Shown: in pieces, positions 1,183-63,600 of the stretch
Layout: each line of letters begins with the position of its first letter
Numbering within the stretch: position 1 is the stretch's first letter
Virus record (IMG/VR): IMGVR_UViG_3300021963_000042
Location: 1 to 64,000 of that record
DNA: 64,000 nt
Origin: a virus
Lineage: Duplodnaviria > Heunggongvirae > Uroviricota > Caudoviricetes
Direction: 5' to 3' (one strand)
Program-made: the position numbers and the translations under genes
Notes under the pieces: model-generated
What the model was told of the DNA's origin: nothing
Databases searched by the model: none
What the model saw: the letters and a program-made list of their open reading frames with translations, nothing else

Positions 1183-1775
1183 TATAACTCCAAATTAGTC
1201 AACTTATTAACATCGCCAAGCGATCCACGATAAAACGAATTAAACGCCAAAGAAACTCTGGCTTCATTATTCTTATTGGTATTGACTCCGTGCAACATAT
1301 GTGATGGGAACAATACAATCATATTTTGTTTAACATTGATAGGCATGTGGTCAAGATTAAACTTAGTCTGCTTAGTTATCTTGGGTTTGATACCGTAAGA
1401 TTTATCCTTAAAGAAAATTATCTGACTCGGATCTTTACTAATATAAACTACTCCGCTGATGATACTATTGTCATGGCAGTGTGTATGATGTGATGTATTT
1501 TTATCGTTAAAGTTTATCCAAGACTGAGTAACCTCAAGAGTAACACCTTCTGCTCCAATGATATTGATTAGATATTCTTGGAGGTGTTTATTAACCTGCG
1601 CCTTCAAAGATGACAATTCAGGTTTATCCAAAACAAAATTATCATTAGATGTTGCATTACCATACACATTCGGGTAGGTTTCAGTTTTAATGCTCTGTAT
1701 ATAAGCAAGCTCGTGAAACTGAAACTCTACCGTTGATTGGTAAAGTGGCGTTGGAAATAAACCGAAGACGTTCAC
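1182..1775 (-). CDS. 2OG-Fe(II) oxygenase (TIGR02466/PF13759-like)
   Basis: 197 aa. HTHCHD...SGVVYI...HMLHGV...RVSLAFN, i.e. HxD/H/RxS double-stranded beta-helix motifs. Paralogue of 7033-7653, 20188-20859 and 57505-58155. Confidence 0.6.
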   Translation of the reverse strand: MNVFGLFPTPLYQSTVEFQFHELAYIQSIKTETYPNVYGNATSNDNFVLDKPELSSLKAQVNKHLQEYLINIIGAEGVTLEVTQSWINFNDKNTSHHTHCHDNSIISGVVYISKDPSQIIFFKDKSYGIKPKITKQTKFNLDHMPINVKQNMIVLFPSHMLHGVNTNKNNEARVSLAFNSFYRGSLGDVNKLTNLEL

Positions 1776-3070
1776 CCGAAGAAATCCTCAAGTGATGTTG
1801 ATTCTGCCTCAGGATGATATTTCAACAATTCACCACGACCAAGTTTTTGTTCGCAATAGTCATACCACTCTTGAGATTCCCACATTCCCTGAGAAACACC
1901 ATTCCACAGTGGACGTTGCTCTGGGTGTTCTTTATTCAGTCTACGAGACTCAACAAAGTCATAACGACAATCTTCATACTCTTTAGAACCCAACTCAAGC
2001 ATCTTCTCACGGAAGTATACCACCAAAGAAATACGCTCAGAACCTTCTTCGCAAACGATAGGAGTGTTACCGTGCATAACTTCGTGGTTGTTAATCAACA
2101 GCAAGTCACCTGGACGTGGGTTAACAGCAACACGATACTCAGGTGCAATCAAATAACCACCACTGTACTTGCCATCATTAGACAGAGTTAGAAGGTTAGA
2201 CAGACCATCATTCAAATCGCCAACGTCATAGTGAGCAGCAGTGCGGAATGTTTTGTTTACAGTAACCGTAGTGAATGGTGTCCCAGGAACCAAGAATCGT
2301 GCATCGATTTTACCAGCAGCTTCCATCTGAGCAGCATAACGCTTAGGTAAGAACTCTTTAAAACCACCAGCCAAAGATTGCAGGAACGGATATGCCATGG
2401 CAAACTTCTCAGGATACTTCGCAGTATAAGAAGTGGCACGACCATAAGGGATGCGAGGATAACGATCAAACCAACCAGCAATACCTGAATGAACAGAGTT
2501 TGCATATGTGGTCAAGCAGATTAAATCTTCAGCAACGTGAACTGCCTCTTGTTTAGCTTGGTCAGCTGGCAACTTACGTGCACGTTCAACCCACTCATCA
2601 AACTTGAAGTTCTCTTTCTTTACACGATCGATAGACCAAACACGTGCACGATTAGAGATCTCTGGTTTCTTACCAGCATACTTCTTGCGAATCTCATCAA
2701 TAGGATCTTCACCGAAAAGGTTTTCAGTTGGCTTCAAGAAGTAGTCAACGATATCATATTCATACTCGGTAACCCATTCACGATTACCCAGCTTCTCACC
2801 ACGTGGTCCTGCAGCAAGTCCACGATTCTGTGTTTCGGTTGCTGCTTCACGAAGACCTGCGTAGGCTTGTTCTTGTTGCTCTTTGCTAAAGTAGTTCTTA
2901 CGAAACTTCAGAACGATCCTATCTTCGCTGATTGGATCTTCGCCAAACTTCGGTGGCATATAAACATCACAATCTTCTTCAATAAGAAAGTCATAGTGAC
3001 TCTCATCAACGAACTGACCCAACAGATGTTGACAGTCATGTTTTCTATCAGCTACAATTACCTTTACCAT
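1772..3070 (-). CDS. 2OG-Fe(II) dioxygenase-domain protein with clamp-binding-like C-terminal tail
   Basis: 432 aa. C-terminal domain has AAHYDVGD (HxD), HEVMHGN (H) and ERISLVVYF (RxS). The last 7 aa SLEDFFG are identical to the gp43 C-terminus. The N-terminal ~260 aa are unassigned. Confidence 0.5.
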   Translation of the reverse strand: MVKVIVADRKHDCQHLLGQFVDESHYDFLIEEDCDVYMPPKFGEDPISEDRIVLKFRKNYFSKEQQEQAYAGLREAATETQNRGLAAGPRGEKLGNREWVTEYEYDIVDYFLKPTENLFGEDPIDEIRKKYAGKKPEISNRARVWSIDRVKKENFKFDEWVERARKLPADQAKQEAVHVAEDLICLTTYANSVHSGIAGWFDRYPRIPYGRATSYTAKYPEKFAMAYPFLQSLAGGFKEFLPKRYAAQMEAAGKIDARFLVPGTPFTTVTVNKTFRTAAHYDVGDLNDGLSNLLTLSNDGKYSGGYLIAPEYRVAVNPRPGDLLLINNHEVMHGNTPIVCEEGSERISLVVYFREKMLELGSKEYEDCRYDFVESRRLNKEHPEQRPLWNGVSQGMWESQEWYDYCEQKLGRGELLKYHPEAESTSLEDFFG

Positions 3071-3079
3071 ACATTTCTC

Positions 3080-4477
3080 CTAAAATTTGAAACCGCTAAA
3101 ACCTTCATCACTATGTATGCGTTTTCCAAAATCACTTTTATCAAACATCGGTCCTTCGTCTTTACTTCCAGAGTCAGCAAGAGTTTGGGCAGATGCTTCA
3201 ACATCATATAGTTTCATTTTAGCTCTGTCAACACCAATAACAAATCGCTTATAATAATTGGGATCATTATAACGATTCTTCAACTGCTTCACGATAATCT
3301 GATTCAGCTGTTCAAGTTCTTCGTTACTCACCAACGCAAACATAAAGTCTGCAGTCGCTGGTAAACCAAAAGATTCAGAAGTATCTTCCAGACCTGGATC
3401 TGAGTTTGTATAACCAGATCGGGTAGTTTGAGTTGCCGACATAATTGGAACATTACACTCAACAGCCAAACCACGAAGTTCTTCAGCGATTGCCTTAATA
3501 TATGTATAAGAGTTTACGCCATGCGTTTGTTTCATTCGAGAAGAAGCACAGATGTTCAGATAGTCAATAAAGATAATATCAGGAACGAACTCTCGCTTCA
3601 TCTTCAACTCTTCCAGCAGGGCACGGAAGTGACCAGCATGAGCAGACGCAGTTGGGTACTCTTTAACAATCAACTTACCTTGTGTCTTCTTAGCAATCTT
3701 TTCAAGACGAGAATCAAAGATGTCACGATCGACAACTTTCAATTCATCCATAGTCAAGTTAAGAAGGTTGGCGTCAATACGTTCAGCGATACGTTCTTCA
3801 GCCATCTCCATGGTGATGTAAAGAACATTCTTACCTTGCATCAGAACAGAAGCACCAACGTGACACATAAACAAAGACTTACCAACACCAGTACCAGCCA
3901 AAGCGATGTTCAAAGTTTTCTTTGATAGTCCACCTTTGGTAATTTTGTTGAACATATCAAGGTCGAAGCTGATCTTTTCTTCGACTCGATGATAAAATTC
4001 ATAACGAGACTCAGCATCCTCGAGATAATCATGGCCAACATGATTATCGAAAGAGACGGCAAGAGCGTCACTAAGGATGCTAGGAATTGCATCTTGCGTT
4101 CTGACTTTATCTCTACCGTCAATGATTTGGATCGAATGTAGAATCGCATTATAAACTGCCTTGTCTTTACAAAACTTTTCAGTGTTCTGAACTAACCACT
4201 CTTCATTACTTTCCTGATTAGTGAGTTGCTTAGCAAACTCTTGCATCTCGGGAACTTCTTTATCGGTAAACCCTTTTAGGTTTCCAATTTCAATCTGAAC
4301 AATCTCAGGACTAGCTGGTTTGTTGTATTGCTCGAAGAACTTAATTAACAAAGAGGCAATTGCTGCCTCTTTGCGATCTGTGAAGTATTCAGTCTTAAGG
4401 TGTGGTACAACCTTGCGACAATATTCTTCATTGTGGATCAGGTTCGATAGGATCGCCTGTTCTATTCTCATCAACAC
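3080..4477 (-). CDS. 41: replicative DNA helicase gp41 (DnaB-like)
   Basis: 465 aa. Walker A motif ALAGTGVGKS and a RecA-like core (IIFIDYL). Synteny uvsX-40-41. Confidence 0.85.
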   Translation of the reverse strand: MLMRIEQAILSNLIHNEEYCRKVVPHLKTEYFTDRKEAAIASLLIKFFEQYNKPASPEIVQIEIGNLKGFTDKEVPEMQEFAKQLTNQESNEEWLVQNTEKFCKDKAVYNAILHSIQIIDGRDKVRTQDAIPSILSDALAVSFDNHVGHDYLEDAESRYEFYHRVEEKISFDLDMFNKITKGGLSKKTLNIALAGTGVGKSLFMCHVGASVLMQGKNVLYITMEMAEERIAERIDANLLNLTMDELKVVDRDIFDSRLEKIAKKTQGKLIVKEYPTASAHAGHFRALLEELKMKREFVPDIIFIDYLNICASSRMKQTHGVNSYTYIKAIAEELRGLAVECNVPIMSATQTTRSGYTNSDPGLEDTSESFGLPATADFMFALVSNEELEQLNQIIVKQLKNRYNDPNYYKRFVIGVDRAKMKLYDVEASAQTLADSGSKDEGPMFDKSDFGKRIHSDEGFSGFKF

Positions 4478-6208: not shown

Positions 6209-6460
6209 TCAAACATCCAAAAATTCAAGTAGTTGGGCTTCGTTCATCATACCAACCTTACGATTCTTTTCCGTATTATTTTCGTCAAGAAGAATCATGG
6301 TTGGGACGCCACGAACTCCATATTCCATAGCAACATTGCTATACTGGTCAATATCAATTTCCTCGATAGGAACTGTAATTTTGTCTGATGCGCCTTCAAT
6401 AACTTTAGAAAGCATTTTGCATGGACCACACCAGCTTGCAGAAAACTTTAGAACTTTCAT
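6209..6460 (-). CDS. thioredoxin
   Basis: 83 aa with a WCGPC active site. Confidence 0.75.
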   Translation of the reverse strand: MKVLKFSASWCGPCKMLSKVIEGASDKITVPIEEIDIDQYSNVAMEYGVRGVPTMILLDENNTEKNRKVGMMNEAQLLEFLDV

Positions 6461-6472
6461 TTTATACTCCTA

Positions 6473-7036
6473 TTATACACTATTTTGATTTATCTGTAAA
6501 TTTTTTGTTGGAACATCAAACACAAAAGTAATGCGAACGCAATCACCAATGTTGTCAGTTCCATGTTCAAGTTTATTGTTAAACCAGAGTAACGTCCCTG
6601 GCTCAACATCATAATGTTCATCGCCTACATAATATCTATACCTTCCCTGTATAGACAGATGATAACGATCTCTTGTTTGATAGTAGTCGCCAATATCAAT
6701 GTGTTTGCCAACCTTTCCACCAACAGGAAGTGACAAGAAACCGCAACGAGAAAACTTGCCAAAGTTTCTCTTCATAAACCCAATAACTTCTGTGTGATGT
6801 TTGCAAGCTGGAGTTGGAATGCAAATCTCTGTGTCTCCGACGTATTGATCAAGCGATTCTACGCCACCCATAACAAGTTGTAGAACACCTGCTTCTACTT
6901 CTGGGAAACCACGATCTAACATAGACATCGCACCATCAACCTGTCTCTGTGAACCCCAATCTTCTGGATGTGCTTGTAACTGTTTCAGTATCTTAGAAAC
7001 ATTCAATCCAGTTTTGATGATGCGTATATTCTTCAT
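6473..7036 (-). CDS. cupin / 2OG-Fe(II) oxygenase-like (Asp/Asn beta-hydroxylase-like)
   Basis: 187 aa. GKHIDIGDY (HxD), LEHGTDN (H) and RITFVFDV (R). Confidence 0.45.
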   Translation of the reverse strand: MKNIRIIKTGLNVSKILKQLQAHPEDWGSQRQVDGAMSMLDRGFPEVEAGVLQLVMGGVESLDQYVGDTEICIPTPACKHHTEVIGFMKRNFGKFSRCGFLSLPVGGKVGKHIDIGDYYQTRDRYHLSIQGRYRYYVGDEHYDVEPGTLLWFNNKLEHGTDNIGDCVRITFVFDVPTKNLQINQNSV

Positions 7037-7653
7037 TTAATGTTTACTATTGACATGTCGTTACCAAGTTCACCACGAAGGAACACATTGAAAGACAGCG
7101 AGTATCTGGTTTTATCTGATGTATTCGGTTCGACTTTATGTAGAATATGTGATGGGAAGATCAAAATATCATTATCATATGGGTAGTGTGCCCACGATGG
7201 CGAGTTAAACAAATTTAGGTTTGAATATTCTACACGGATAGCTGGTGGAAAGATATTTGATGGCGAACCAATATCAAACACAATCTCTCCTGTTGTTTCG
7301 TCTGTTTGAATATAAACGACGCCAGACAAAAGAGAATTGTCATGTCTATGTAGTTGAGCAGCATCACCCTTCTCATGTTTCACAACCCAAGAGTTAGTTA
7401 TGTAAAACTCAATGTGAGGTGCTACAGACAACCCATTATAAACATAACGATCGAGGGCAGACTTGATCTTCTGTTTTAAAGAAGCAAAGTCTTCTCTGTC
7501 CAATACAAACTTATCAGCAGAGTACTTCCCATCATATATCAAGGAAGTTACTCTACTCAACTCATCTGATGTGATGGGTTCAATCTTTGATTGATAGATT
7601 GGTGTAGAAAATAATGGGACGATGTTATCCAAAGAAGTCCTCCAGAGATGCAT
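7033..7653 (-). CDS. 2OG-Fe(II) oxygenase (TIGR02466-like paralogue)
   Basis: HRHDNS...SGVVYI...HILHKV...RYSLSFNV. Track ORF extends to 7731. Internal Met start chosen to match the paralogue N-terminus (LFSTPIYQS). Overlaps the 3' end of gene 43. Confidence 0.55.
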   Translation of the reverse strand: MHLWRTSLDNIVPLFSTPIYQSKIEPITSDELSRVTSLIYDGKYSADKFVLDREDFASLKQKIKSALDRYVYNGLSVAPHIEFYITNSWVVKHEKGDAAQLHRHDNSLLSGVVYIQTDETTGEIVFDIGSPSNIFPPAIRVEYSNLNLFNSPSWAHYPYDNDILIFPSHILHKVEPNTSDKTRYSLSFNVFLRGELGNDMSIVNIK

Positions 7654-12562: not shown

Positions 12563-13140
12563 AGTAATGCCTTTCGCTGTTCTATGTACTTCTGGATCTG
12601 TTCAAGTTGGGCAATGCTTTCAACACGAGCGATAGAATCACACGCACGAATAACTGATGACGCTGGACCACCAGATGCTTCAGCCCAAGCAAACCCTTTA
12701 TCATAACTGTAAGCATGTCGCATAGATGTATGAATCCAATCTTCGATAACATCGAGATTGAGGTCTTCGAAGAACAAGACTCGAATAAAAACATTATCTG
12801 CATCATGCCCCATAAACCTCAAATACCTACCACATTGGTGATGGGTAATCTTCTCGGAGATAGTGCTGGACTTTAGATTATACGCACGATACGGCACATA
12901 ATCACTCTTACCAACATACCCAATATCTTTATCAACAATTCGCTTCGGTTTAGTTAAAGAGACTTGATAGATGCCACGATGGTTATCAACCTGCTTAGGA
13001 GAGAACACATTGTTCCACCAAGTTTTGGTCTTCAACCTTGTGTTATGTTTTTGAGCAGCATTGGGGATTGCAGAAACAGGAATCCAGTCAGTTATATGAC
13101 TAGCCTTGCTTCTGATATCCGCATCAATTTCTTTAATCAC
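12559..13140 (-). CDS. GIY-YIG nuclease-domain protein (Seg-like homing endonuclease candidate)
   Basis: RGIYQVSL...(11 aa)...IGYVGKS matches the GIY-X10-11-YIG motif. Lies next to the ligase gene. Confidence 0.5.
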   Translation of the reverse strand: MIKEIDADIRSKASHITDWIPVSAIPNAAQKHNTRLKTKTWWNNVFSPKQVDNHRGIYQVSLTKPKRIVDKDIGYVGKSDYVPYRAYNLKSSTISEKITHHQCGRYLRFMGHDADNVFIRVLFFEDLNLDVIEDWIHTSMRHAYSYDKGFAWAEASGGPASSVIRACDSIARVESIAQLEQIQKYIEQRKALL

Positions 13141-14495
13141 TTGATGTCCTTACTGTGGTCAGCCACATCTTTATCATCACGAAGTTCAACAAAGATAGGA
13201 AGGAACAAAGATTCCTCACCCAATTTGTTCTTGATACGACTATTATACTTGACTGCGACAATTCTGTCAAGTAATTTTTCAGTGATCAGATTCTTGCGAT
13301 GAGCATCATTGAAACCTGAGCCGACCGAAACCTTTACAACACCATCAGCAGATTCGCAAATAATTGCACCCAGCATACCTTCATACTTGCCAGTACCAGC
13401 CTGTACTCCAACGATACGCAGGTCGCATTCTAGTTCGCCTTTGAATTTGATCTGATGCTTTGCACGTTTATCTTCCCAAACACCACTACCATCTTTAAGG
13501 ATGATACCCTCAAGTCCTTGAGCAAGATATTCTTGGAAGATACCTTGCGCTTCATCTAGCGTTTGAACCATGTCGCTAGAAACGAGCCAAATCTTTTTAC
13601 CACTAGCCTTCTGTTTCTTTACAAGTTGTTGCAGAGAAGAGAATCGTGTTGAGTAGGGGGTTGCGCAACGACCACTAATAAATTGATCATACGGAATCAA
13701 GTCCCACACAGTAGCGTGAACCAACGATGCTTCTTTGGCAGAGATAGTTCCCTTGTTTGCTTTGTTGAGAATACCATTACCAGTCTGACGATCCGCAAAC
13801 TGATGGTCGCCTTCCAGCATTACCAGCAACTCACCATCAAAGACGCAATCAACACCATCAGCAAGAAACAAGAACTCTTGTTCCAAGTTACCGAGCAACT
13901 GAATCTCTTTACCGTTACGGCTACGGAATTCTACCTTACCATTTTTGACGATAGCGTTGAACCGCATCCCATCCATTTTTAGTTGGACGTAGGCTGGATA
14001 CTTTATCTTGTCTACCAGTTTCTGCTCGTACTGGCTGCACAACATTACGGGATATTCGCTCACCAAACCAGTCCACACTGCGTTTGCGGTTGACACTGAT
14101 GCTCCACATTTCAAATCCTTTTCGATAATTCGTTCGATAACCTTAGCGTCGTTAGAGTTAACTGCCTCAAGAATAGCAGTCAGTCGATCAATCGCAGCAT
14201 TACCAGTTACTACACGATTAGATAAGTCTTTGAGTGCAGGTAACATAGAAGCCAGCGAAGCAGCATGATCGCTGGTGTTGGGAGTATACTTTGGAATCTT
14301 GCGTTGATAGAACTGCGTAAAGGGATCGAGAGCCAAGCGGACTACCTCACGCAACACTTCGTTATCGCTGTTCGCATTTAGTTGATCGATTTTGAAGTTG
14401 CGAGAATTGTTTGCCGCAAGGCTCTCGAGAAAACCATTAATGTTCATTGTATCATTTCCTGTATAACAAATTTTGCTTCGGGGACAGAACGGCAC
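13137..14495 (-). CDS. 30: ATP-dependent DNA ligase
   Basis: 452 aa. KMDGMR (KxDG adenylation motif) on a ligase/OB fold. Confidence 0.85.
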   Translation of the reverse strand: MPFCPRSKICYTGNDTMNINGFLESLAANNSRNFKIDQLNANSDNEVLREVVRLALDPFTQFYQRKIPKYTPNTSDHAASLASMLPALKDLSNRVVTGNAAIDRLTAILEAVNSNDAKVIERIIEKDLKCGASVSTANAVWTGLVSEYPVMLCSQYEQKLVDKIKYPAYVQLKMDGMRFNAIVKNGKVEFRSRNGKEIQLLGNLEQEFLFLADGVDCVFDGELLVMLEGDHQFADRQTGNGILNKANKGTISAKEASLVHATVWDLIPYDQFISGRCATPYSTRFSSLQQLVKKQKASGKKIWLVSSDMVQTLDEAQGIFQEYLAQGLEGIILKDGSGVWEDKRAKHQIKFKGELECDLRIVGVQAGTGKYEGMLGAIICESADGVVKVSVGSGFNDAHRKNLITEKLLDRIVAVKYNSRIKNKLGEESLFLPIFVELRDDKDVADHSKDIK

Positions 14496-20187: not shown

Positions 20188-20859
20188 TTACGTCTTATTA
20201 AAATTCTTATTATTTGGGAACAATGTGGTAGTGTCTTTAATTGCAAAATTAAAAGTCATACACATTCTATCTTCCTGAGACAGATTCTTTGTGACAAAAT
20301 GCATCAAGCTCCCTGGGAAAATCAACATCAAATTTTCTTTAGCATCAATTTGATGGAATACCTCAGTGAACCTGTTACGATCAACAAAGTATTTTGGGGC
20401 ATAGTTCCAGCATCTTGTATTATCGCCATGCTGGAAAACAATGTTACCAGAATCAGGTGGAACCTTAAAATAATATACAGCTACAATCGTGGTGCCAGGA
20501 TGCACATGTGAGAACACGACATCGTCTGGTCCATTAATGTTATACCAGCAGCCATTCAAAACTAAGCTACAAGATTCTTTAGCTCCAAGTTCTCGAATGC
20601 ATTGGCTGGCATTTTCTGTAGCAAGCGCAACAATCTTTTCTAATGCAGAATTAGATTTAATCTGCGCTTTAGACAGTAAGTAGCTAATCCACTTTAGACC
20701 AGCAGACCTAGCCTCACCAATATAATTGTTTGGGTTTCGGTTTGCTGTGTCAATTTCATACAGGGAGTTTGCATGATCAACCAGTCTGGCAGTATCGACA
20801 TCATCAATATCGAAAGACCAAACTGGTGTGACAAACAAGTCAACCCTGTTCATAATCAA
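20188..20859 (-). CDS. 2OG-Fe(II) oxygenase-like (TIGR02466-like paralogue)
   Basis: 223 aa. LFVTPVWSF N-terminus as in the paralogues. HVHPG...VAVYYF...LMHFV...RMCMTFNF. Confidence 0.5.
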   Translation of the reverse strand: MIMNRVDLFVTPVWSFDIDDVDTARLVDHANSLYEIDTANRNPNNYIGEARSAGLKWISYLLSKAQIKSNSALEKIVALATENASQCIRELGAKESCSLVLNGCWYNINGPDDVVFSHVHPGTTIVAVYYFKVPPDSGNIVFQHGDNTRCWNYAPKYFVDRNRFTEVFHQIDAKENLMLIFPGSLMHFVTKNLSQEDRMCMTFNFAIKDTTTLFPNNKNFNKT

Positions 20860-21515
20860 CCTTCGAAGGTTGAGTCAGCTTCTACTGCGACGTAATAAAC
20901 CAAATCGCCAGTGCCTTTGAAACGAGAGATTTTCTTAGAAGAAATGCTAACGTCATAATCGCCAGGAAGCATCTTCAGGTTTTCAACTTTCAAATTGATC
21001 TTGAAAGTTTTATCGGTAGTACCGACAGCTTCACGGAACACGTTAGCCGTGGTGTTCTTCTTGTCACCAACAACAGCAGTGATAGAAGAACCATCGCCAA
21101 CGATAGACAAGTCTTCAGAACGAAGAACGCCAGCAGTCTTACGGATCATGTCCAACTGATCGCTGGACAGTTTGAATTCAATCTCATGCGCTGGGAATGT
21201 GATTGCTTTTTGCGGTGCGACCAAAACTTCAGGTGCTGCAGCGAAGTATTTGATGCTGCGACCACCACTCTTAATGGTGACGTACTTGTCGTTAAATTCC
21301 AACTCGGGATCGTCAAACAGAGACATCGCACCCAAAAATTCATTCAGGTCATAGATACCAAAGTCTGCAGGGAAAGTTTCCCCAACGACAGTGTCAGCCA
21401 TCACGTTCTTTTGTGAAGAGATGGTTGCGAGTTTGTTACCTTGTTTCAAAAGCAAATTGCTGTTGATGCCAGCAAAGTTCTTAATAACGGTAACTGTTTC
21501 TTTAGATAGTTTCAT
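20856..21515 (-). CDS. 45: sliding clamp gp45
   Basis: 219 aa. MKLSKETVTVIKNFAGINS... aligns along its length to T4 gp45. Confidence 0.9.
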   Translation of the reverse strand: MKLSKETVTVIKNFAGINSNLLLKQGNKLATISSQKNVMADTVVGETFPADFGIYDLNEFLGAMSLFDDPELEFNDKYVTIKSGGRSIKYFAAAPEVLVAPQKAITFPAHEIEFKLSSDQLDMIRKTAGVLRSEDLSIVGDGSSITAVVGDKKNTTANVFREAVGTTDKTFKINLKVENLKMLPGDYDVSISSKKISRFKGTGDLVYYVAVEADSTFEG

Positions 21516-31715: not shown

Positions 31716-32942
31716 TCATACAAAACCCATTTTCCTAGAAGTAGGTTTCGTATTTGTCTGAGTGTTAAAGATTTCAGCGATAGAAAATTCAACAACATTT
31801 CCTGCTTGAACATTTGGCACTTCAGCACCATCAAGTTTATCAGCCAGTTTCTGGGCATCAAACAATGACAGTGGTTTGAATTCAATGATATCAAAACAAC
31901 GACCTGGACGAATCAAAGCAGAGTCGATATCACGAATGCTTGGAAGGTTGGTAGAGAAGATCATCTTCTTACCTTTGGTAGTCACAAGACCATCACCTAC
32001 GTTTAGGAATCGGTGCATCATTGTGTTACCATCACTGCGAGACTTCAAGAAAGCATCGCTATCTTCCAGAACCATCACGCTGGCATCATCTTCAATAAAG
32101 CGAGCGAAGAAGCCATCTTTATCAAGAATGTTTGCATCGTATGAAACGATTGCGGATGAATTGGTGTGTGCAAGCAGACCACGAATGAAAGTGGTCTTAC
32201 CAGTTCCAGGAGGTCCAATCAACAACAGAATGTTTGCTGAAGATTCCATGTATCGTTCGTAGTAAGACTCAAGAGTCTCGCCTTTGAGAAACGGATACAT
32301 CTCTGCGATAGGTAGACGATCACGATTCAAAGGTACGTTGACAGAACCACCATCGCTGGAATAAACCCACTCGATGTAAGAGGTTACGATTGAAAACTTC
32401 TCTTCAACTTTGTTGATGATGGATTCAGTGAATTGAATATCTCCGAATGCACGAACTGTGGTGGAGTTGCTGTTTACATCATATTTGATGTAGTTGTTGG
32501 TTTCTTTTTGGATCATGAAACCATTTGACGAGTTACCTTGCGTGAACAGGTATTCATCATTATTGAATGATTCTTCAGCCCATGCTGCCCAGCGTTCTCT
32601 GTTGCAGAGAACAGTGGTCTCACGATGAACAGTAGTTAGTCCAGCCTCAACACGTTTCTGTAAAATTGCTGAGATGATCAAATCATCAAAGTCTGAAACG
32701 CCAAGGAAAATATTGTTGTCAGTTTGTTCGTTCATAATCTTGTTCAATTGAAATTTATTATCTGTTGCATCCCACGCAAACTTTTTAATGGTTCTGTTGG
32801 ATCTACGTCTTGCTCGAATTGCTCTAGAGGATCTTACTACTCTCGATGCTCTTACTGGGCGATAAGTTCCATTAGCTAAACTAGTCAGAAGACTGTGGAT
32901 CGATTGGTGGTTGCTCATGTATATCGCTTTCAATAAAATCAT
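31716..32942 (-). CDS. AAA+ ATPase (classical AAA family)
   Basis: LLIGPPGTGKTT, MVLEDSD and RPGRCFD. The start is uncertain because the Arg-rich N-terminus overlaps gene 55. Confidence 0.5.
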   Translation of the reverse strand: MILLKAIYMSNHQSIHSLLTSLANGTYRPVRASRVVRSSRAIRARRRSNRTIKKFAWDATDNKFQLNKIMNEQTDNNIFLGVSDFDDLIISAILQKRVEAGLTTVHRETTVLCNRERWAAWAEESFNNDEYLFTQGNSSNGFMIQKETNNYIKYDVNSNSTTVRAFGDIQFTESIINKVEEKFSIVTSYIEWVYSSDGGSVNVPLNRDRLPIAEMYPFLKGETLESYYERYMESSANILLLIGPPGTGKTTFIRGLLAHTNSSAIVSYDANILDKDGFFARFIEDDASVMVLEDSDAFLKSRSDGNTMMHRFLNVGDGLVTTKGKKMIFSTNLPSIRDIDSALIRPGRCFDIIEFKPLSLFDAQKLADKLDGAEVPNVQAGNVVEFSIAEIFNTQTNTKPTSRKMGFV

Positions 32943-33453
32943 CTAGAGTTTGTTGCTCTTTCTTTTTCTTCTTTTCTTTTTTCTTATCAATGAAAGAAGT
33001 ATCGAAAGTGCTATTCGCTTGCATGAAGTCCATGTAGGCATTTTTAAAATGACCATCGTCATCTTGATCCTGCAAGTCAAACATATCAAAGGGCATATCT
33101 TGAATTAGCTTGTTCTTGATATACGAGTGTTTCTTTTCTTTGCCAATTCTTCGAAGGAATGCGAAGTAAATAATTTGTGTGAAATATGCAAAGGGATTCT
33201 TGGATTTGTCTGGATCGAAATTGTCAAAGTAATTAATGCAATTTTCAATACCGTCGAGAATCATATCATCACGATATGAGTAGTTGATGAAGTTAGGTTT
33301 GTAAGAAAGGTGTGTTGCAATTTTAAGAATGCACTCGCCAAGGTATCTGGGGATAACAGGTTTTTCTCGACCCTCCTCCGCAGCCTTCTTACAGTCAGCT
33401 TTATATTCAATAATAGCTGCTAAAAAATCTTTGTTGTTTACGTACTCTGCCAC
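32881..33453 (-). CDS. 55: late sigma factor gp55
   Basis: 190 aa. YVNNKDFLAAIIEYK and NPFAYFTQIIYFAFLRRI align to T4 gp55. Confidence 0.8.
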   Translation of the reverse strand: MAEYVNNKDFLAAIIEYKADCKKAAEEGREKPVIPRYLGECILKIATHLSYKPNFINYSYRDDMILDGIENCINYFDNFDPDKSKNPFAYFTQIIYFAFLRRIGKEKKHSYIKNKLIQDMPFDMFDLQDQDDDGHFKNAYMDFMQANSTFDTSFIDKKKEKKKKKEQQTLDDFIESDIHEQPPIDPQSSD

Positions 33454-48425: not shown

Positions 48426-49163
48426 TTATCCTAGGAAGAATTCAAGTGGAGCAGATTTAGTCATTAACTCATCTTCCAACTCTTTGATTTCTCCTGTAGC
48501 TTCGTCATACAATTTATCACCATCCAAAGTGACACCACCTGGAAGTTGAATGCCTGAAAACTTTTTAATGTTTGTTGCCCATTGACGTTTAAATAGCGCA
48601 GTTACATAGTGTTTTAACCATGCTTCGTTATACACTTTAGTGAACTCTTGTGGATCGAGAACACGATAAGCCTCAACAACAACTAAACTTCCCAATGGAA
48701 GATCTTGAGACCAGTTACAGTCGATATACAAACGATCTTGCATTCTGTTGAATCTGAACAGCTGTGGACCATTCAATTCAAAATCGAGCAAAGAGATATG
48801 GTTCATAACCATCTGATAGTAGATGATTGATGTAGAAGTTAAGTCATACAGATCGTGCAGACGCAATTGATATTGCATGTCAAACAAATTCTTTGTAGAA
48901 GATGCTTGAGTTACTGGGATAACTCTTGTGATGCCGTAAACCAGAGAGTTGATTGGGATATACTTGTTGTCAATATCAGTTTGAGTGATAGCGTGTTTTA
49001 AGTAAACACGCTCGACACCTTCATAGTGATACTGTCTCCAATATTCAAGAGCTTCGTCTATACGATCTTCTAATTGATCCTCATCTACGTTGATCTCAAC
49101 TACAGGTGCGCCCAGCGATCTAAGCGCATACTGTTTTAATCCTTCTCTTGAGCTGACTGCCAT
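48426..49163 (-). CDS. 13: neck protein gp13-like
   Basis: 245 aa. Position upstream of 14. Confidence 0.5.
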   Translation of the reverse strand: MAVSSREGLKQYALRSLGAPVVEINVDEDQLEDRIDEALEYWRQYHYEGVERVYLKHAITQTDIDNKYIPINSLVYGITRVIPVTQASSTKNLFDMQYQLRLHDLYDLTSTSIIYYQMVMNHISLLDFELNGPQLFRFNRMQDRLYIDCNWSQDLPLGSLVVVEAYRVLDPQEFTKVYNEAWLKHYVTALFKRQWATNIKKFSGIQLPGGVTLDGDKLYDEATGEIKELEDELMTKSAPLEFFLG

Positions 49164-63225: not shown

Positions 63226-63600
63226 TTAGCAGTTGCAAGCGCAGTTACAGTTACAGTTGCAAGCACAGTTACAGTTGCAATTAGATCTGTACCACTGGAA
63301 ACCGCCCATCGTATTATCTTGGTTGTCGTGACGGATACCATCAGTAGAAGCGTTAATAGCTCCACCAACAGAAGTGTTACGGAAAATATTGATACGTCTG
63401 TCAGTAGTAACACCGAAACCTAAGTCACCAGCATCACAGTTACCGCAGTTACAGTTAGCTCCGTTACATGCGCAGTTCCATGCGCAGTTAGCGTTTGGCT
63501 CTGTATAGGTTCTGTTGCCTGCGTCATAATAATTCCAAAATAAGTCTACAACGTCTGTGCCATCAGCACGTCTGTGTCCTGTTGCTCCGTGATAAGCCAT
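63226..63600 (-). CDS. Cys/Asn-repeat protein (RiPP-precursor-like or metal-binding fibre accessory)
   Basis: 124 aa, 15 Cys. NANCAWNCACNGANCNCGNCD internally and the C-terminal tail NCNCNCACNCNCNCACNC-stop. Lies 3 nt downstream of a fibre gene. Confidence 0.5.
   Translation of the reverse strand: MAYHGATGHRRADGTDVVDLFWNYYDAGNRTYTEPNANCAWNCACNGANCNCGNCDAGDLGFGVTTDRRINIFRNTSVGGAINASTDGIRHDNQDNTMGGFQWYRSNCNCNCACNCNCNCACNC

Follow-up and report, generated by a model that had tools for sequence, protein, structure and literature searches.

A predicted DNA-modifying enzyme that ends in the same peptide as the phage DNA polymerase is encoded in the virus record IMGVR_UViG_3300021963_000042 (IMG/VR; Caudoviricetes). 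We analyzed positions 1 to 64,000 of this record, called the window in the following. The open reading frame (ORF) 1772-3070 encodes a 2-oxoglutarate (2OG)-Fe(II) dioxygenase of the TET/JBP family, here referred to as TET, and its last seven residues, SLEDFFG, are also those of the family-B DNA polymerase gp43. The results suggest that in a group of T4-like marine phages DNA is modified at the fork, by an enzyme docked on the replication clamp gp45. We consider it likely that a clamp-docked TET/JBP dioxygenase hydroxylates a pyrimidine, most likely thymine, at its 5-methyl group, and that an enzyme resembling the T4 beta-glucosyltransferase (BGT) then glycosylates the product. Family membership, catalytic residues, identity of the tail, conservation, co-variation and gene context were established by sequence analysis; clamp binding, substrate base and final product are what we infer from them.

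A predicted TET/JBP dioxygenase ends like the DNA polymerase

Pfam searches identified the domain PF12851 (Tet_JBP) in residues 224-355 of the dioxygenase (E=1.1e-23, 83.7 bits compared to a cut-off of 34.9), and the same domain is present in 120 of 120 homologues. The protein is covered over its full length by phrog_24024, a PHROGs family without annotated function. Human TET2 is the best PDB sequence match of the family when a profile of 38 homologues is used. Residues H280-Y-D282, H333 and R346-I-S348 are invariant among 38 homologues, and H280-x-D282, H333 and R346 align to the TET2 segments AHRD, LHATTP and RISLVFY, which hold the iron and 2OG ligands. By sequence, this enzyme belongs to the TET/JBP family of DNA-base dioxygenases. 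The initial annotation of this DNA had proposed a TET/JBP-like enzyme with an HxD...H...RxS pattern, and both family and pattern were confirmed. It also gave the correct coordinates but left the strand unstated; the genes are located on the minus strand (Table 1).

The same annotation had set apart an N-terminal portion of 260 amino acids and proposed a fold assignment for both parts. The catalytic part could be assigned to Tet_JBP. The Pfam-free part comprises residues 1-223, of which residues 1 to about 185 precede the expected start of the Tet_JBP profile; these ~185 residues had no PDB sequence match with a 16-sequence profile and nothing consistent in Pfam when searched member by member. 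The N-terminal domain is found in full-length representatives of 430-480 amino acids and not in phage TET/JBP proteins of ~300 amino acids. The TET/JBP homologues in KU682439 (DLP6), KF301602 (Cr30), MG450654 (S-CBWM1) and MN698246 (HTVC112P) are labelled 'SNF2 DNA repair protein' in GenBank, a misannotation that hides a DNA-modification pathway in these cultured phages.

The dioxygenase terminates in ...HPEAESTSLEDFFG, with the tail peptide EAESTSLEDFFG, and gp43 in ...WKVEEHASLEDFFG, closing with EEHASLEDFFG. The C-terminal suffix common to both proteins is seven residues long, while every other pair among the 82 minus-strand genes (3321 pairs) shares at most two residues; the chance expectation of a seven-residue match is ~2e-7, based on composition. 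The heptapeptide is encoded by TCA CTT GAG GAT TTC TTC GGG in the dioxygenase gene and by TCT CTG GAG GAC TTC TTT GGA in the gp43 gene. Five of the seven codons differ, every change being synonymous, and a recent DNA duplication between the two genes was rejected for this reason. Identical peptides, different codons and no duplication had all been noted in the initial annotation.

The motif [ST][LI][DE]xFF, with an optional final G or A, ends all of the 120 closest homologues (72-99% identity). At 40-58% identity, almost every full-length representative ends in it as well, and the five to eight residues in front of it vary freely. Among 38 homologues, F430 and F431 are invariant and L427 is conserved in at least 90%; neither holds for the six residues that separate P420 from L427. 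The tail is present in all 81 related TET loci, where six leucine codons, both codons at each phenylalanine position and a total of 27 distinct versions of the 15-nucleotide tail sequence are used. Purifying selection therefore acts on the peptide, across hundreds of homologues, as the initial annotation had stated.

The tail matches the gp45-binding motif of T4

T4 gp43 ends with EEKASLDFLFG, and T4 gp55 has SLDFLY four residues before its end. The gp45-binding motifs of T4 gp43, gp55 and gp33 are hydrophobic-acidic, very alike and interchangeable (PMC2988020), and the LDFLF peptide of T4 ligase has been seen in the gp45 pocket in a crystal structure (PMC6212786). The earlier statement that the C-terminal tail of T4/RB69 gp43 binds the clamp agrees with these studies, in which the T4 gp43 sequence is an experimentally defined gp45 motif. 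By this comparison, the dioxygenase tail matches the gp45-binding motif of the T4 gp43/gp55/gp33/ligase type. Like the window tail, the T4 ligands (gp43 SLDFLFG, gp55, gp33 and the DNA ligase loop GLDFLFD) use a short [S/T]-L-[D/E]-x-[F/L]-F peptide, which is mostly located at the extreme C-terminus behind a flexible linker, as in the window dioxygenase. They differ in two respects: the T4 ligands serve replication and transcription, whereas here the motif sits on a dioxygenase predicted to modify bases and, in relatives, also on transferases for glycosyl, acetyl, amino-acid and methyl groups; and the T4 motif reads LDFLF compared to LE[DE]FF in the marine lineage.

The gp45 clamp gene lies where the initial annotation had placed it, and its product is 31% identical to T4 gp45 (E=1.6e-24, tblastn). 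A third copy of the motif is found in the late sigma factor gp55, 16 amino acids from the C-terminus and preceded by a lysine-rich stretch. In a six-frame translation of the 64 kb, [ST][LI][DE]xF[FILY] occurs four times: in gp43, in the dioxygenase, in gp55 and in one spurious antisense ORF. No internal clamp loop of the T4-ligase type was found in the window ligase (13137-14447).

Relaxed versions of the motif yield false positives. They flagged the 83 amino acid thioredoxin (6209-6460, minus strand), which ends with QLLEFLDV (LLEFLKG in 40 relatives); we take this as a false positive because it resembles a normal thioredoxin C-terminal helix. The tail PLEFFLG of the neck/head-tail adaptor protein (phrog_211; 48426-49163, minus strand) is motif-like, which is probably a coincidence in a structural protein. 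The FLExHL-type tails of P-loop kinases in related loci were too weak, and the claim of a clamp motif was dropped.

The tail of TET follows that of gp43

A comparison of gp43 C-termini, as suggested in the initial annotation, showed the motif in T4 gp43 and in 41 of 41 gp43 orthologues from related loci. In all 41 IMG/VR viral contigs with both genes, the motif is present on gp43 and on TET. Related loci L025 and L035 combine gp43 SLESFFA with TET SLESFFG, and no other tailed enzyme was seen in them. In DLP6, gp43 ends with ATLDSFFA, TET with ATLGDFFV and a glycosyltransferase of the TET-associated glycosyltransferase (TAGT) family with DLSSFFN. The cultured Caulobacter phage Cr30 (loci L082 and L090) has LF in place of FF in all three proteins: gp43 (ADLSSLFD), a TAGT-like protein (SDLSKLF) and TET (GATLF). 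Phage C48C1 has gp43 ATLEDFFG and TET SLEEFFV, together with a Dam-type N6-adenine methyltransferase ending STLDAFFG. Phage Melnitz combines gp43 TLEDFFG with NLNDFLGE on a TET of a distant clade, encoded beside a C5-methyltransferase, and no other tailed enzyme was seen. In the sequences compared, the TET tail co-varies with the cognate gp43 tail across lineages.

Where gp45 is lacking in a phage, its TET homologue lacks the tail as well. HTVC112P, in which TET is ParB-adjacent, and P12024L both have complete genomes without a gp45 homologue, and their TET homologues have no tail. The TET homologue of S-CBWM1, whose annotated polymerase is of family A, is likewise tail-less, and the tail is missing from TET/JBP representatives of ~300 amino acids. 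In the Pelagibacter phage HTVC112P (L092:6973-8507), a ParB-like gene is located directly upstream of the 302 amino acid tail-less TET/JBP gene; this pair seems to represent the ParB-dependent subclass of T-dioxygenases that was described in 2026.

Other DNA-modifying enzymes of related loci carry the tail

To survey the related loci, the 994 ORFs of the 81 loci were clustered, giving 40 families with at least four members. The tail was found in six of these: TET (81/81), gp43 (41/41), TAGT (5/5), the group-1 glycosyltransferase (GT1; 4/4), the GNAT acetyltransferase (20/23) and the amino-acid:DNA transferase (ADDT, PF18724). These counts refer to the strict motif, which is found in 7 of 34 ADDT members; counting the one-residue-shorter GLExF[AG] raises the number to 32 of 34. 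No member of the remaining 34 families has the strict tail. PF20691, the Pfam family of the TAGT, carries the name TET-associated glycosyltransferase and is found in relatives of this phage. Examples of tailed enzymes are listed in Table 1. The initial annotation, which had described the tail for the dioxygenase, was too narrow, as downstream hypermodification enzymes of related phages, from several unrelated families, carry it as well.

The TET of DLP6 is 51% identical to the window TET, tailed, and accompanied by a tailed TAGT. DLP6 DNA is listed as resistant to restriction enzymes (PMC8228603), which fits hypermodification in a cultured relative.

Gene neighbourhood

Directly upstream of TET lies the gene for the replicative helicase gp41, and this is the case in every related locus that reaches far enough. 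Downstream of TET follow a 2OG-Fe(II) oxygenase of family PF13759, whose gene overlaps the TET end by four nucleotides and the start of the next gene by one, and a protein of 335 amino acids. The starts and stops of this string of four genes touch or overlap. For the 335 amino acid protein, the only match among Pfam and PHROG families at E<=1 was a spurious one to 2EXR, and it resembles BGT in fold only. Its AlphaFold2 model has a predicted local distance difference test (pLDDT) score of 94.9, and the top Foldseek matches are the T4 BGT structures 1c3j, 1j39 and 1bgt (E=4e-9, TM 0.69, 13-16% identity); the protein is predicted to fold like the GT-B glycosyltransferase T4 BGT.

Of 80 related loci, 14 have a homologue of this glycosyltransferase immediately behind TET or no more than ~1 kb away. 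In most relatives the slot is occupied instead by GATase, amidoligase, GNAT, ADDT and P-loop nucleotide kinase 3 genes, the match to ADDT in the neighbourhoods of TET orthologues reaching E=2e-23.

Three PF13759 (2OG-FeII_Oxy_5, phrog_81) paralogues are present among the replisome genes, all on the minus strand: one directly after TET, one directly after gp43 (~7033-7625) and one directly before gp45 (20188-20853). None of the three has a clamp-type tail. A further oxygenase-type gene of the replication module, between the thioredoxin gene and gp43 (6473-7036, minus strand), encodes a cupin or Asp-Arg-hydroxylase-like protein (weak PF05118 match; phrog_32420).

Table 1. Features of the window and tailed enzymes of related loci
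Feature	Position	Strand	Remarks
BGT-like GT-B glycosyltransferase (predicted), 335 aa	175..1182	minus	fold match; two genes downstream of TET
2OG-Fe(II) oxygenase PF13759	1182..1775	minus	Pfam E=1.6e-18; phrog_81; between TET and glycosyltransferase
Dioxygenase, TET/JBP family (5-methylpyrimidine; predicted)	1772..3070	minus	ORF, 432 aa; Pfam, phrog_24024, TET2 profile match
SLEDFFG heptapeptide, putative gp45 clamp-binding tail	1775..1795	minus	stop codon 1772-1774
Catalytic core, residues 224-355	2006..2401	minus	Pfam; holds H280, D282, H333 (Fe(II) ligands) and R346 (2OG-binding)
N-terminal domain, ~185 aa, fold without assignment, subfamily-specific	2516..3070	minus	no Pfam or PDB match
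gp41 replicative helicase	3080..4477	minus	DnaB_C; immediately upstream of TET
gp43 family-B DNA polymerase, 828 aa	7625..10111	minus	Pfam DNA_pol_B and DNA_pol_B_exo1; ends SLEDFFG, tail codons 7628-7648
gp45 sliding clamp, presumed docking platform	20856..21515	minus	Pfam gp45-slide_C E=3.5e-11
gp55 late sigma factor	32881..33453	minus	41% identity to T4 gp55; third motif copy TLDDFI at 32932-32949
Tailed TAGT	L028:3385-4185		TLDEFFG
Tailed GT1	L017:2685-4031		DLESFFG
Tailed GNAT	L073:5956-7101		SLEEFLV
Tailed ADDT	L010:13391-14410		GLEIFA
Tailed Dam-type methyltransferase, phage C48C1	L084:3835-4719		STLDAFFG

Proposed mechanism and points against it

In the mechanism we propose, the dioxygenase would oxidize the 5-methyl group of a pyrimidine in the phage DNA, most likely converting thymine to 5-hydroxymethyluracil (5hmU). 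Behind a short variable linker it would present the C-terminal peptide [ST]-L-[ED]-x-F-F-[GA], the same peptide that gp43, by homology to T4/RB69, would use for gp45. The tail would dock the enzyme on gp45 trimers at the fork or on those left behind on the DNA, and docking would raise its local concentration on the nascent duplex, so that oxidation could take place as the DNA is made. The BGT-like protein would glycosylate the new hydroxymethyl group, resulting in a base-J-like base that would shield the genome from host nucleases. In relatives, TAGT or GT1, GNAT or the amino-acid:DNA transferase take the place of this glycosyltransferase and would follow on the same clamp. Since the transferases of relatives carry the same tail, the clamp might serve as a tool-belt for the whole hypermodification pathway. 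We lean towards the wider reading that a large global T4-like group (marine and freshwater cyanophage relatives; from soil, phages such as DLP6 and Cr30) runs its whole hypermodification pathway on gp45 via polymerase-mimicking tails, the pathway consisting of a TET/JBP oxidase and a following TAGT, GT1, GNAT, amino-acid:DNA transferase or even Dam methylase. Precedents are the T4 alpha-glucosyltransferase (alpha-GT), which co-purifies with gp45 (PMC13216743), and the gp45-bound loop of T4 ligase (PMC6212786).

Several points weigh against this mechanism. Binding of the dioxygenase to gp45 is deduced from motif homology and co-variation. A 2026 study found that the contact with gp45 is not the main determinant of the modification level reached by T4 alpha-GT and that promoter strength mattered more (PMC13216743); tethering may accordingly be helpful rather than essential. 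The window glycosyltransferase departs from the pattern: its tail VDPLIL does not match the motif and is placed confidently by AlphaFold, unlike a free peptide, and its family of 165 metagenomic proteins has a different conserved C-terminus, [VI]D[PL][IL]xL. The AlphaFold2 model of the dioxygenase has a mean pLDDT of 50.9, with the core below 50 (shallow alignment, 38 close homologues), so that support for the fold comes from profile evidence and the N-terminal domain is a putative one. With respect to the substrate, the window covers 64 kb of a genome of probably 150-190 kb, in which a C5-methyltransferase could be encoded elsewhere, and the distant TET clade of Melnitz, with its similar tail, adjoins a C5-methyltransferase.

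Substrate base and alternative explanations

The last two points bear on whether the same clamp-tethered enzyme could be a true TET, which would oxidize 5-methylcytosine (5mC), the product of a phage C5-methyltransferase with its gene beyond the window, to 5-hydroxymethylcytosine (5hmC) for glycosylation. This is the pathway of clades A and B of Burke 2021; 5mC-oxidizing phage TETs do exist, some with genes that closely follow those for DNA polymerase and a C5-methyltransferase (PMC8256090), and the T4-like phage Melnitz has the order polymerase, HhaI-like C5-methyltransferase, TET-like protein. The Melnitz protein, however, aligns with just 22% of the query and is only 32% identical there. 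A motif search, and a tblastn search that used the HhaI-like enzyme of Melnitz as query against 1.2 Mb of sequence, detected neither a motif nor a homologue of a C5-methyltransferase in the window, 80 related loci (flanks up to 10 kb), the 47-kb source contig and the complete genome of Cr30. Furthermore, genes for ADDT, a P-loop kinase and GATase lie downstream of close orthologues (70-85% identity). GATase, amidoligase, ADDT and P-loop kinase 3 are the thymidine-hypermodification set, which works on 5hmU (PMC8989533, PMC13229309), and according to surveys most TET/JBP enzymes of phages are thymine dioxygenases making 5hmU when no C5-methyltransferase gene lies beside them (PMC13229309). Since these neighbours are present and no C5-methyltransferase was found, conversion of T to 5hmU followed by glycosylation, giving a base-J-like product, is the likely route and is favoured over 5mC to 5hmC; the true-TET alternative appears unlikely.

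The tail itself could be functional without gp45: it might bind a different partner in the replisome or host (the clamp loader or the host's beta clamp, for instance), or it might share with gp43 a role as a signal for stability or degradation. The marine LE[DE]FF is indeed not the same as T4 LDFLF, and T4 alpha-GT (tail ...EQFDIITK) binds gp45 without such a motif, so that clamp partners need not use it. We nevertheless regard a partner or role other than gp45 as very improbable. The motif is equivalent in position and chemistry to the T4/RB69 gp43 tail, an established clamp binder (PMC2988020, PMC6212786), it recurs close to the end of gp55, which besides gp43 is the classical ligand of gp45, it is limited to gp45-encoding phages among those compared, and it follows the gp43 variant of each lineage. 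That the SLEDFFG match is a functionless coincidence or the result of a recent DNA transfer has practically no probability left: apart from the shortness of the match nothing speaks for it, and it is refuted by the codon differences, the pair statistics, the conservation in 120 of 120 homologues and the 27 encodings, the tail being kept down to ~40% identity.

Comparison with known systems

The phage 5mYOX/TET-JBP enzymes (Burke 2021, PMC8256090; O'Toole 2026, PMC13229309) have the same PF12851 domain and carry out post-replicative oxidation of 5-methylpyrimidines. As in the group of the window, glycosyltransferases, ADDT, P-loop kinase and GATase are encoded near them, and both T-dioxygenase clades (ParB-independent C2 and ParB-dependent C1) resemble the window enzyme in having no adjacent C5-methyltransferase. 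Characterized T-dioxygenases are ~290-300 amino acids long or have a ParB-linked C-terminal extension, whereas the window enzyme has 432 amino acids, an additional N-terminal ~185 amino acids and, unlike them, a C-terminal extension ending in what appears to be a polymerase clamp-binding peptide. The genes called in the 10 kb to each side of the window TET include no ParB-family match; the suggested partner of this TET is the replicative clamp gp45, in contrast to the ParB CTPase clamp of the ParB-dependent class. Neither PMC8256090 nor PMC13229309 mentions such a tail.

T4 alpha-GT (Sommer 2004; confirmed in PMC13216743) is, like the enzyme described here would be, a DNA-modifying T4-type enzyme associated with the clamp, for which replication-coupled modification has been proposed. 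Its C-terminus has no gp43-like tail, whereas the window TET is tailed. Its substrate 5hmC is made before replication as a nucleotide, while here the hydroxymethyl group would arise on DNA by the action of a tethered enzyme.

The route proposed here also resembles the synthesis of base J in kinetoplastids, in which JBP1/2 convert T to 5hmU in DNA and JGT yields glucosyl-5hmU. JGT belongs to the TAGT family, whereas the window glycosyltransferase is predicted to have the GT-B fold of T4 BGT. JBP1 is targeted via its J-binding domain and JBP2 via its SWI2/SNF2 domain; targeting via the clamp is proposed here. In eukaryotes, DNMT1 binds PCNA through a PIP-box, a type of peptide common with replication proteins. 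Here too a DNA-modifying epigenetic enzyme is brought to the replication clamp by a short peptide; DNMT1 is a eukaryotic methyltransferase of independent origin that maintains a mark, whereas a protective genome-wide hypermodification is envisaged for the phage.

Phage TET/JBP enzymes and their link to thymidine-hypermodification genes, the gp45 motif and the contact of alpha-GT with gp45 are already known. The full-text literature searches turned up no description of TET/JBP enzymes, or of their partner transferases, with a clamp tail of the polymerase type. Published modes of phage 5-methylpyrimidine dioxygenases are stand-alone and ParB-dependent (PMC13229309), and a gp45-dependent activation would be a third one. 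'Post-replicative' modification would then effectively be co-replicative. Such a mode may explain why some phage TET/JBP clades are inactive when expressed alone in Escherichia coli, and heterologous screens of such enzymes should include the cognate clamp. Why phage DNA is modified after and not before replication has been called a mystery (PMC13229309). Clamp tails would offer a simple answer, as modification within seconds of synthesis would shorten the exposure of unmodified DNA to host nucleases. The C-terminal [ST]L[DE]xFF could serve as a signature by which new DNA-modifying enzymes are recognized in genomes of T4-like phages, and the tail would be the prokaryotic-virus counterpart of the eukaryotic DNMT1-PCNA coupling.

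Further observation

In the tail-fibre region of the window, an ORF of 124 amino acids rich in Cys and Asn (63226-63600, minus strand) has the C-terminus NCNCNCACNCNCNCACNC.

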